Shown here: positions 14,421-15,902 of the stretch, one piece after another | How the letters are laid out: each line of letters begins with the position of its first letter | Position numbering within the stretch: position 1 is the first letter of the stretch | IMG/VR virus record: IMGVR_UViG_2939142107_000001 | Coordinates: 1-64,000 of that record | DNA: 64,000 nucleotides | Strand: one strand, 5' to 3' | Source of the DNA: a virus | Taxonomy: Duplodnaviria > Heunggongvirae > Uroviricota > Caudoviricetes | The notes under the pieces: model-generated | Databases searched by the model: none | The model's input: only the letters and a program-made list of their open reading frames with translations | Told to the model about the DNA's origin: nothing | Program-made: the position numbers and the translations under genes

Positions 14421-14465
14421 AGGTCAATATGATGCGAAAAGATAGCATTCGCGACTTAAAAATAC

Positions 14466-14482
14466 AAATTTATTAGAGCAGA
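14466..14482 (-). promoter_or_regulatory. C1 operator (Op51-like) controlling the c4-icd-ant operon
   Basis: Plus strand AAATTTATTAGAGCAGA; 15/17 match on the minus strand. Confidence 0.6.
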
Positions 14483-14763
14483 TTAGTGTCGTGCAATAGA
14501 TATATTATTTGTGATGAAAAATAATGCAGAGGGATATTGTAACTTTAAGATGGATATCAATAGTCGATACATAAATTAAGTTAGCAATAAACTATTAACT
14601 TAAGAAATAATGCAGATGGTGAACTTGTCTCTGACTTTTCAGCTATACACAATAAGTTAGGGATAGCTTATAAAAAGTTGATTAATTGATATAAGTCAAT
14701 GGGAGTATTCTTGTTTACTTTTCGTTCTCGTGGTAACTTCTCGCCGGTTTTTGTTTTTCTGGG

Positions 14764-15285
14764 ATGATTCTTATGTCTAAAAAGTATACTTTATGCGCTC
14801 TTGTTGTATCTGCAATTCTTCTTTCTGGGTGTCAATCTAGCGGTGCTGATTATGCTGCCGATGTTTATGATACCGCTCAATTGAATTCGAAGCAGGAAAC
14901 AAAGACAGTCAATATTATCTCTGTGCTTCCAGCTAAAGTGAAAGTTGATAATAAAGCTAATAAAGAAGCGGCACAGACATTTGGTGCGGTACTGGGAGCT
15001 GTTGCTGGGGGCGTTGCCGGTTATAATGTTAAAGGCACATCGACACTGGGTGCTGTAGCTGGCGGTACTGGTGGTGCGGCTCTTGGTGCAGCGGCTGGTT
15101 CTTTGGTTAGTGATAAAACAATTGTTGAAGGTGTTTCACTGACTTATAAAGAAGGAACTAAGGTGTTCACTTCAACTCAAGTTGGTAAAGCATGCCAGTT
15201 TACAACGGGGCTTGCTGTGCTTATTTCAACTAAAGATAATGAAACTCGAATTCAGCCAAATGCTACTTGTCCAGAAAAGAAATAA
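14764..15285 (+). CDS. Glycine-zipper outer-membrane lipoprotein (SlyB/Pcp-like)
   Basis: Signal peptide with lipobox LSGC followed by Q; Gly/Ala-rich core GAVLGAVAGGVAGYNVKGTSTLGAVAGGTGGAALGAAAGS; AT-rich gene. Confidence 0.6.
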   Translation: MILMSKKYTLCALVVSAILLSGCQSSGADYAADVYDTAQLNSKQETKTVNIISVLPAKVKVDNKANKEAAQTFGAVLGAVAGGVAGYNVKGTSTLGAVAGGTGGAALGAAAGSLVSDKTIVEGVSLTYKEGTKVFTSTQVGKACQFTTGLAVLISTKDNETRIQPNATCPEKK

Positions 15286-15288
15286 TTT

Positions 15289-15828
15289 ATGAATAAAATT
15301 ATTTTATTTCTAATCTTTTCTACGTTTAGTGTAGGCACTGCCTTGGCTAACTCGTTGCAAAGTCAAATTGCTGCTATTGCTCAAGCGGAAAATGAAGGGC
15401 GAGCTAAAGAGCAGCAAGCTGAGGATGCCAGAAAAGAACTTATTCGCCAACAAGCACAAGCTGAACGTATTAGAAGAGAAAAAGCAGCATCTGCCGCTGC
15501 TGCACGCGAAAAACAGCGTGTTGCTGCAGAAAATGAACGTAGAGCGAAACGAGAAGCCGAGCTAGCAAATGACAAGAAGCGAGATCAAGCTTATGAGGAT
15601 GAGCTTCGCAAGCTGCAACTCGAAAGCATGAAACTCGAACTGCAAGCAAAAGCGGCTCGTGTCCAGCGAGAAAACGATTTTATAGAGCAGGAGTTGAAGG
15701 AGAGAGCAGCTAAGACAGATGTAATTCAGTCTGAGGCTGATGCAAATAGAAATATTTCTACAGGAAGTAAAGATTTACTGCAAAGCGAAGGAAAAGCTAG
15801 AGAGAAGAAAGCTAGCAGTTGGTGGTAG
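15289..15828 (+). CDS. Secreted or periplasmic charged coiled-coil protein
   Basis: N-terminal signal peptide (MNKIILFLIFSTFSVGTALA/NS) then an E/K/R/A/Q-rich helical region; starts 4 nt after the lipoprotein stop. Confidence 0.55.
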   Translation: MNKIILFLIFSTFSVGTALANSLQSQIAAIAQAENEGRAKEQQAEDARKELIRQQAQAERIRREKAASAAAAREKQRVAAENERRAKREAELANDKKRDQAYEDELRKLQLESMKLELQAKAARVQRENDFIEQELKERAAKTDVIQSEADANRNISTGSKDLLQSEGKAREKKASSWW

Positions 15829-15867
15829 TAATCACTACGATTGCGAGCATACTGTCACAAATGACAA

Positions 15868-15902
15868 CTCGTAGAATCTGTTAACAAACTAGATTCTACG
15901 AG
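15868..15902. terminator. Perfect 12-bp inverted repeat hairpin (CTCGTAGAATCT-N11-AGATTCTACGAG) separating the lipoprotein module from the tail operon
   Basis: Read directly; weak T tract follows (GTTTC). Confidence 0.4.

Follow-up and report, generated by a model that had tools for sequence, protein, structure and literature searches.

In bacteriophage P1 the interval between the C1 repressor operator Op51/Oc4 and the late promoter LPsit is filled by the genes simA-simB-simC, the last of which is cited as the superinfection-exclusion gene of this phage (Maillou & Dreiseikelmann 1990, as cited in PMC2409434). Lytic growth requires none of the three (PMC10695390); they are low in GC and constitute one of eight regions of high variability in P1-like phage-plasmids ("variable region 4"; PMC9603915). 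Here we describe the gene pair that takes their place in a 64,000-nucleotide stretch of viral DNA (IMG/VR record IMGVR_UViG_2939142107_000001, positions 1 to 64,000; hereafter the window). The window is a P7-like plasmid prophage of the P1 family. The region of the pair has 99–100% identity to phage P7 and to many "P1-like" phage-plasmids, and the window is 100% identical, at equal coordinates, to the initial 64 kb of E. coli plasmid NZ_CP031654.1. The pair encodes a lipoprotein resembling YfgH and a DUF5384 protein resembling YfgI.

In E. coli, chromosomal yfgH is annotated as a lipoprotein of the two-transmembrane (2TM) glycine zipper type and its neighbour yfgI as a DUF5384 protein. According to a preprint of December 2025 (bioRxiv 10.64898/2025.12.22.696046), YfgH is localized in the outer membrane (OM), and its deletion sensitizes the cell to SDS/EDTA (sodium dodecyl sulfate/ethylenediaminetetraacetic acid). 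It is essential under Bam or Lpt depletion, its mild overexpression rescues BamA or LptD depletion, and it co-purifies with BamA, LptD, OmpF/C/A, LamB and TonB-dependent receptors; SlyB-like rings are predicted for it. For YfgI, a mutant sensitive to nalidixic acid is cited; in S. Typhi the orthologous genes, srgIL, are under the regulation of SdiA (PMC11619404).

SlyB itself (PDB 7OJF/7OJG) forms rings around lipid nanodomains and OM proteins. Bor of lambda, Cor of phi80 and N15, and Llp of T5 are likewise small OM lipoproteins, produced from a prophage or early in infection; Bor confers serum resistance, and Cor and Llp block the phage's own receptor. The cor and llp genes adjoin tail or receptor-binding genes. 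Lastly, the IncF surface-exclusion and serum-resistance protein TraT is an OM lipoprotein that forms rings and combines an alpha-helical transmembrane (TM) barrel with a beta-sandwich; its chromosomal gene has repeatedly been co-opted by mobile elements (PMC11733297).

The pair has been catalogued in P7 (upf50.5/upf50.0) and in many plasmids, and the variability of the slot is published (PMC9603915). Our literature search found nothing on the pair as a mobile yfgHI lineage, as an allelic alternative to sim or as cargo of unrelated temperate phages, nor anything on the function of phage copies of yfgHI. We think it about an even chance (probability roughly 0.5) that the pair is an accessory, non-structural cassette of the variable sim slot which serves as a lysogenic-conversion module, remodelling or fortifying the OM as YfgH does.

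The lipoprotein

P7 annotates the first product, Upf50.5, as an "outer membrane lipoprotein of unknown function," with a sig_peptide feature on the gene. The real start is probably the ATG at 14773, as judged from the GGGA 8 nt upstream of it and from the alignment with homologues. The N-terminus, MSKKYTLCALVVSAILLSGC followed by QS, contains the lipobox LSGC with Gln at position +2 (non-Asp, OM sorting). The lipobox Cys23 is invariant across 37 homologues and, in their alignment, so are G74, G78, G82, G104 and G108 of the glycine zipper. After its lipid anchor the protein has a 2TM glycine zipper and then, at the C-terminus, a beta domain in which two Cys are invariant. An earlier note on this DNA, made from the sequence without database searches, had described a glycine-zipper lipoprotein with lipobox LSGC; the motif, Gln +2, the invariant zipper glycines and the sig_peptide annotation of P7 are all in agreement with it.

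The lipoprotein is 67% identical to K-12 YfgH over 171 aa (E = 6e-73), the divergence being greatest in the inter-helix turn and the signal peptide. Searching the PDB with a profile made from 37 members of the YfgH family finds SlyB 7OJF/7OJG over its whole length (E = 2.8e-9), the alignment with 7OJF spanning query positions 9–162 and chain positions 6–153 of 155. Single-sequence searches of the PDB gave no match for the lipoprotein or for the DUF5384 protein, SlyB being found by the family profile only. On the strength of the identity to K-12 YfgH and the profile match to SlyB, the lipoprotein belongs by homology to the SlyB superfamily, in its YfgH branch, and the pair is a paralogue of the core host operon. 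The lipoprotein and SlyB share the order of their elements, namely lipid anchor, beta segment, 2TM glycine-zipper hairpin and C-terminal beta domain. The relation is distant; SlyB lacks a DUF5384 partner gene, and for the phage protein rings are predicted by homology. In an AlphaFold2 (AF2) model from the 37-sequence alignment (predicted local distance difference test, pLDDT, 54) helices are placed at 64–88 and 94–113. Pfam Rick_17kDa_Anti is matched by 30 of the 37 family members and, below the cut-off, by the lipoprotein (18.2 versus 24.2 bits).

There is also a weak similarity to TraT. The lipoprotein scores 23.1 bits with Pfam TraT (PF05818; gathering score 31), and 35 of its 37 relatives match weakly, below the cut-off (best E = 2.5e-7). 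Comparison with F-plasmid TraT by hhalign gives a probability of 85% (E = 5.9e-6) over 73 columns; TraT structures are not among the PDB matches of the family profile. Unlike the phage protein, TraT has no DUF5384 partner, and it is ~70 aa longer.

The DUF5384 protein

The second product (P7 Upf50.0) is 47% identical to K-12 YfgI over 179 aa (E = 9e-46). Its N-terminus, MNKIILFLIFSTFSVGTALA followed by NS, can be read as a signal peptide ending in the cleavage motif A-L-A, and an identical 20-aa signal peptide is annotated in P7. The mature protein of 159 aa is all-helical and 41% charged, and the AF2 model consists of a single helix from residue 3 to residue 178 (pLDDT 88), which would measure ~24 nm if straight. 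This bears out the signal peptide and is in line with the long charged coiled coil that had been read from the sequence. A search of the PDB with the DUF5384 profile returned nothing meaningful.

The combination of an OM lipoprotein with a helical protein of ~24 nm that has an N-terminal hydrophobic segment bears a superficial resemblance to spanins, and one might picture a lysis accessory in which the two proteins bridge the membranes and disrupt the OM at lysis. We judge this very improbable. The gene order is the opposite of i-spanin followed by o-spanin, and instead of a short proline-rich peptide the lipoprotein is a protein of ~150 aa containing a TM glycine zipper; given its A-L-A signal-peptidase motif, the second protein is probably not anchored but released. 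The pair is situated upstream of a late promoter and not beside lysis genes, P1 lyses without it, and its orthologues are core chromosomal genes that stabilize the OM and do not disrupt it.

Relationship to the chromosomal operon

Of 5426 complete E. coli genomes, 5419 have a chromosomal match of ~69% identity, annotated as yfgH and yfgI, and there are ~180 plasmid copies besides. The phage pair keeps the gene order of this operon and nearly the same lengths of product (173 and 179 aa, against 172 and 179 aa in the host), together with the lipobox, the glycine zipper, the two Cys, the signal peptide and the DUF5384 motif that is conserved at the C-terminus. It differs in being carried on a plasmid prophage, in a hotspot, in its lower GC (42–43.5% versus 47–49%), in its unrelated upstream leader and in falling within a separate "mobile" clade. 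Sequence comparison identifies the pair as phage-carried, diverged paralogues of the core operon yfgH-yfgI.

The sim slot

To the left of the cassette are kilA, ant1/2, icd, the C4 RNA, its a1b1 targets and the C1 operator Op(c4); to the right, LPsit precedes the late operon pmgC-tub-pmgB-sit. In alignments with P1 and P7 the P1 homology ends right after the operator, at 14482, and Op(c4) is the last conserved backbone element and left boundary of the slot. Homology returns at ~15857 with ACAAATGAC, the -22 box of LPsit. The variable cassette therefore extends from 14483 to 15856. The map position that the earlier note had given for sim proves to be exact, since simABC fill the same Op51/Oc4–LPsit interval in P1.

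The two open reading frames (ORFs) are co-oriented and divergent from c4-icd-ant, and with the AT-rich leader they make up the two-gene unit that the note had delimited. Its description of the unit as markedly lower in GC applies to the leader (31%), but the genes, at 42% and 43.5%, are only moderately below the 3-kb flanks (48.0% and 47.3%); the cassette as a whole has 40.2%. The products had been taken to be envelope-located, and both are indeed predicted to be exported, one by a lipoprotein signal and the other by a signal peptide.

The distribution of the cassette was determined in complete E. coli genomes, P1-like elements being defined by a pmgC-tub probe with at least 80% coverage. Such elements occur in ~483 genomes. 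The yfgHI-type cassette is found in full in ~181 and full simABC in ~127, and in a further class of ~165 only ~200 nt at the start of the sim region match. Missing from P1 and carried by ~181 of the ~483 elements, the unit is accessory.

The alternative left by the earlier note was that the two are structural genes of the tail operon. These data bear on it, and on a role of the pair in assembly within this (sit) operon as well. The pair has the same orientation as the adjoining pmgC-tub-pmgB-sit, and one GenBank record (phi456) auto-labels both products as tail proteins. This explanation is almost certainly wrong: the position of the pair is upstream of LPsit; P1 and more than half of the P1-like elements lack it, having sim or other cassettes instead; and it is homologous to a chromosomal operon that does not belong to a phage. 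A different label, "DNA methyltransferase," is attached to the 173-aa lipoprotein by phrog_1277 (PHROGs) and by the RefSeq records NC_050152, NC_031129, NC_042128 and NC_019445. Both this and the tail-protein label look like propagated misannotations, and the "DNA methyltransferase" label is corrected by the present analysis.

The position of the pair suggests another explanation, which we entertain tentatively. It might be a dedicated superinfection-exclusion system that replaces Sim functionally, any fortification of the OM being incidental. YfgH-like rings would cage or stiffen the OM entry sites and receptors, and the coiled coil would block the tail tube, the Sit transglycosylase or the DNA crossing the periplasm. 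The pair is an exact allelic replacement of simABC and has the same orientation, low GC and signal peptides on all of its products. The divergence of the lipoprotein from host YfgH peaks in the inter-helix turn, and YfgH co-purifies with the phage receptors OmpF/C/A and LamB; both points are in keeping with such a role. On the other hand, the pair shows no sequence similarity to SimA, SimB or SimC (BLASTP, no match better than E = 0.27), PADLOC gives no match for it, and NCBIfam yields nothing useful. Sim comprises three genes and has no lipoprotein, and an exclusion phenotype is on record for sim alone, exclusion by the pair being proposed from sequence and position. With 67% identity to a housekeeping OM stabilizer, the same biochemical activity is the default expectation, and an argument from position in a hotspot amounts to guilt by association. 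The homology of the pair to YfgH and YfgI does not by itself imply exclusion.

The other occupants of the slot are of interest in this connection. One alternative cassette (L004) encodes a 212-aa protein with the N-terminus of SimA, a TM protein, a 158-aa signal-peptide protein and an SH3-domain protein, and another (L005) encodes signal-peptide proteins of 215 and 158 aa. The alternative cassettes that were read are all low in GC (0.34–0.41) and all encode exported signal-peptide proteins; a slot holding only cassettes for exported proteins, two of which share the SimA N-terminus, speaks for exclusion. P1 SimA has 52 aa (L002 4753–4911), and ~40 of its residues match the N-terminus of the 212–215-aa signal-peptide proteins (L004 786–1424 and L005 1780–2427) at 92% identity, so that P1 simA looks like what is left of the N-terminal part of a longer gene.

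A second allele of the yfgHI-type cassette, with products 84% and 80% identical at the amino acid level, is found in the same slot in IncY plasmids, where it is followed by a DUF559-domain gene. The presence of this nuclease-like companion is a further point in favour of exclusion. The gene codes for 419 aa, lies between the DUF5384 gene and pmgC (L017 3889–5148, NZ_CP048027.1) and is a possible defence gene within the sim slot.

Between these two alleles the ratio of nonsynonymous to synonymous substitution (dN/dS) is 0.06 and 0.04 for the two genes, with dS saturated, and the flanking backbone is nearly identical, which indicates strong purifying selection on both genes and alleles drawn from an old and diverse pool. 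This result is hard to reconcile with the pair being a neutral hitch-hiker, a piece of chromosome captured in a recombination hotspot without a role for phage or lysogen. That the slot is a known variable low-GC region and that the host already has yfgHI would fit such an origin. We nonetheless find it quite unlikely: besides the selection acting at saturated synonymous distance, both genes are intact in the P7-type cassette, which is present in full in ~181 complete E. coli genomes, the pair is carried independently by unrelated temperate phages, and the mobile clades are distinct from the chromosomal ones.

Other carriers of the pair

The pair is also found inside P2-like prophages, where it directly adjoins tail-fibre and tail-fibre-assembly genes. 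These carriers are located at three chromosomal sites, namely yecD/yecE, the tor region and a disrupted ompW, and their alleles are ~68–71% identical to one another and to the P7 type. Proximity to tail-fibre genes recalls cor and llp and may be counted in favour of exclusion, as may the antiviral hotspots that P2-like phages are described as carrying (PMC9122126). No homology to Bor, Cor or Llp was detected, however, and these are single small proteins with neither a TM zipper nor a partner.

Further copies are found in a Salmonella phage-plasmid of ~102 kb that carries tail-fibre, endolysin-like, exonuclease and Rep genes, a contig that has no nucleotide match to known phages and is called a phage-plasmid from its PHROG content alone; in an Enterobacter contig with phage-like early genes; and in a transposase-rich E. 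coli island. In the Enterobacter hormaechei carrier (JAXRQK010000012.1) a Tad2-like protein (Pfam PF11195; L013 2237–2716) is encoded among small phage-like genes a few kb upstream of the pair. In every setting examined (chromosome, P1-like, P2-like, phage-plasmid and island) the DUF5384 gene is immediately 3′ of the yfgH-type gene. In a neighbour-joining tree the P7-type and P2-type copies form sister clades, apart from the core chromosomal YfgH.

Phage TL-2011b and ~60 IMG/VR proviruses were considered as carriers and rejected, as theirs is the host yfgG-yfgH, 98–100% identical to K-12, at over-called prophage ends. TL-2011b (L016, JQ011317.1 41360–42935) and the IMG/VR sequences L035 and L038–L097 end with host yfgG-yfgH(-yfgI). 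Prophages of this type are integrated beside yfgI/guaA with boundaries that include host DNA, and can be mistaken for phage carriage of yfgHI.

Recruitment of yfgHI by P1-like and P2-like phages and by other phage-plasmids may be likened to the co-option of chromosomal TraT, a ring-forming OM lipoprotein, by plasmids (PMC11733297), to which the family is weakly similar; this parallel, too, favours exclusion. If so, a ring lipoprotein of the SlyB family and a periplasm-spanning DUF5384 coiled coil could together be an unrecognized exclusion or defence module acting at the envelope, which temperate phages have repeatedly recruited from yfgHI and which substitutes for Sim in the P7 type. We put forward this combined reading, including the analogy with TraT, as a possibility for which the odds are less than even.

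Expression of the cassette and the hairpin at LPsit

The leader contains no ORF. A promoter scan located a sigma-70-like site at 14497–14525 (TAGATA-17-AATAAT, 9/12 consensus match). A 15-nt direct repeat, AAATAATGCAGA[G/T]GG, is present at 14519 and 14605. The two copies, AAATAATGCAGAGGG (14519–14533) and AAATAATGCAGATGG (14605–14619), are 86 bp apart and could be a regulator binding site or a product of chance. A shared regulatory leader was sought, but that of the cassette has no homology to the region upstream of K-12 yfgH or to the leaders of the other mobile copies.

The earlier note had the unit closed by a perfect hairpin. The 12-bp stem exists, with arms CTCGTAGAATCT (15868–15879) and AGATTCTACGAG (15891–15902) and, as RNA, a dG of -20.8 kcal/mol (z -5.4 versus shuffles), but it belongs to the conserved leader of the late operon and not to the cassette. 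P1 homology resumes at ~15857, upstream of the hairpin, which places it outside the two-gene unit, in the backbone. It is kept with 11 invariant pairs in P1, in P7 and in every cassette type examined, always before pmgC; being invariant, the stem offers no covariation. Its 5′ arm holds the -10 of LPsit and its 3′ arm most of the pmgC Shine-Dalgarno sequence GAGG (15900–15903). We reject it as an intrinsic terminator of the cassette in view of the absence of a U-tract, the lack of a call by the terminator scan, its conservation as backbone and its overlap with LPsit and the pmgC Shine-Dalgarno sequence.

RNA beginning downstream of the LPsit -10 shows no structure beyond chance level. The geometry suggests that in all P1-like phages the hairpin probably shields the late tail operon from transcripts that read through from upstream. 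In a full-length RNA of this kind, from whichever cassette lies upstream, the hairpin would fold and hide the ribosome-binding site of pmgC, and a transcript from LPsit, starting inside the loop, would leave that site free.

Proposed function

In the lysogenic-conversion reading, which we prefer, the AT-rich leader would supply the pair with a sigma-70 promoter of its own, its transcription would not depend on LPsit, which requires Lpa, and the products could for this reason be made in the lysogen. The lipoprotein would be lipidated and sorted to the OM, where its two glycine-zipper helices are expected to insert and where it may oligomerize into rings of the SlyB/YfgH type around lipid patches and OM proteins. 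The DUF5384 partner, secreted to the periplasm as a coiled coil, presumably works with these rings. The net effect would be lysogenic conversion of the envelope, with an OM remodelled and sturdier towards detergent, chelator, bile and peptide stress; access or DNA entry of incoming phages may fall as well.

Several points weigh against this proposal. The work on YfgH is a single preprint, in which YfgI is not addressed, and our literature search found no paper mentioning DUF5384. Every E. coli host has a chromosomal yfgHI, so the benefit of a second copy of 67% identity is not obvious. As the AF2 model of the lipoprotein is poor, it is homology that argues for ring formation. The promoter is a predicted one, and the promoter scan found sigma-70-like sites to be no more numerous in the leader region than in shuffles. 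The role of the hairpin as an insulator is suggested by geometry only.

Neighbouring features

The coordinates of the cassette and of the adjoining features are collected in Table 1. A scan of the window with a C1 operator consensus gives 10 operator-like sites against 0.29 expected.

Table 1. Features of the sim slot and its flanks in the P7-like window.
Feature	Position	Strand	Evidence and remarks
C4 antisense RNA, immunity region I (context, outside cassette)	14200–14285	-	Rfam RF01695, 70.8 bits versus gathering score 45; P7 annotation transferred
a1b1 targets of C4 RNA	14353–14405	-	Rfam
C1 repressor operator Op(c4) (= P1 Op51/Oc4), TCTGCTCTAATAAATTT	14466–14482	-	2 mismatches to operator consensus; annotated as protein_bind in P7 and P1
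AT-rich leader	14483–14763 (281 bp)	+	31% GC
YfgH-like outer-membrane lipoprotein (P7 Upf50.5)	14764–15285	+	100% aa identity to P7 Upf50.5
YfgI-like DUF5384 protein (P7 Upf50.0)	15289–15828	+	Pfam PF17358, 147.8 bits versus gathering score 25
Cassette 3′ end, before homology with P1 and other cassette types returns at ACAAATGAC	15829–15856	+	Alignments
Late promoter LPsit, right boundary of slot, conserved backbone	15859–15877	+	P7 annotation transferred, 99% identical here; equivalent in P1 annotation
LPsit -22 box	15859–15866	+	Kept behind all cassette types
LPsit -10, TAGAAT	15872–15877	+	Kept behind all cassette types
Perfect 12-bp hairpin in conserved pmgC leader, 11-nt loop	15868–15902	+	Sequence; RNA fold
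pmgC (P7 tubA), first gene of late sit operon (context)	15909–16475	+	phrog_1851, E = 1.5e-102; P7 and P1 annotations

In the immunity leader, an Rfam match to isrK, an Hfq-binding small RNA of Salmonella, lies at 14311–14392 on the - strand. With 47.9 bits it is just under the gathering score of 50, and it overlaps the c4-a1b1 target element.

The sit gene of the late operon (18075–21815) encodes a putative injection transglycosylase and tail ruler, here of 1246 aa. It contains a tandem duplication of 297 bp (x1.9, 82% match) and a 51-bp repeat (x2, 98%), at 18177–18746 and 20215–20318, respectively. The gene exceeds P7 sit (3393 nt) by 348 nt, which is exactly 297 + 51. No tandem repeat was found in the first ~1.4 kb of P7 sit or in the ~0.8 kb of P1 sit that were compared, the position of the 51-bp repeat lying beyond both stretches. 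Provided that Sit acts as the measure of tail length, the tail made by this element may be longer.

Significance

Should the cassette simply add a second YfgH/YfgI, P7-type P1 prophages would be lysogenic converters of OM robustness. They occur in ~3% of complete E. coli genomes and often carry resistance genes, and could thus affect tolerance of bile, detergents and peptides. Should exclusion turn out to be true, it would be the first function for DUF5384 and a new role for nanodomain lipoproteins of the SlyB type, and the pair would be a tractable companion system with which to work out how Sim acts. It would also have relevance to P1 transduction and to phage therapy against strains with such plasmids.

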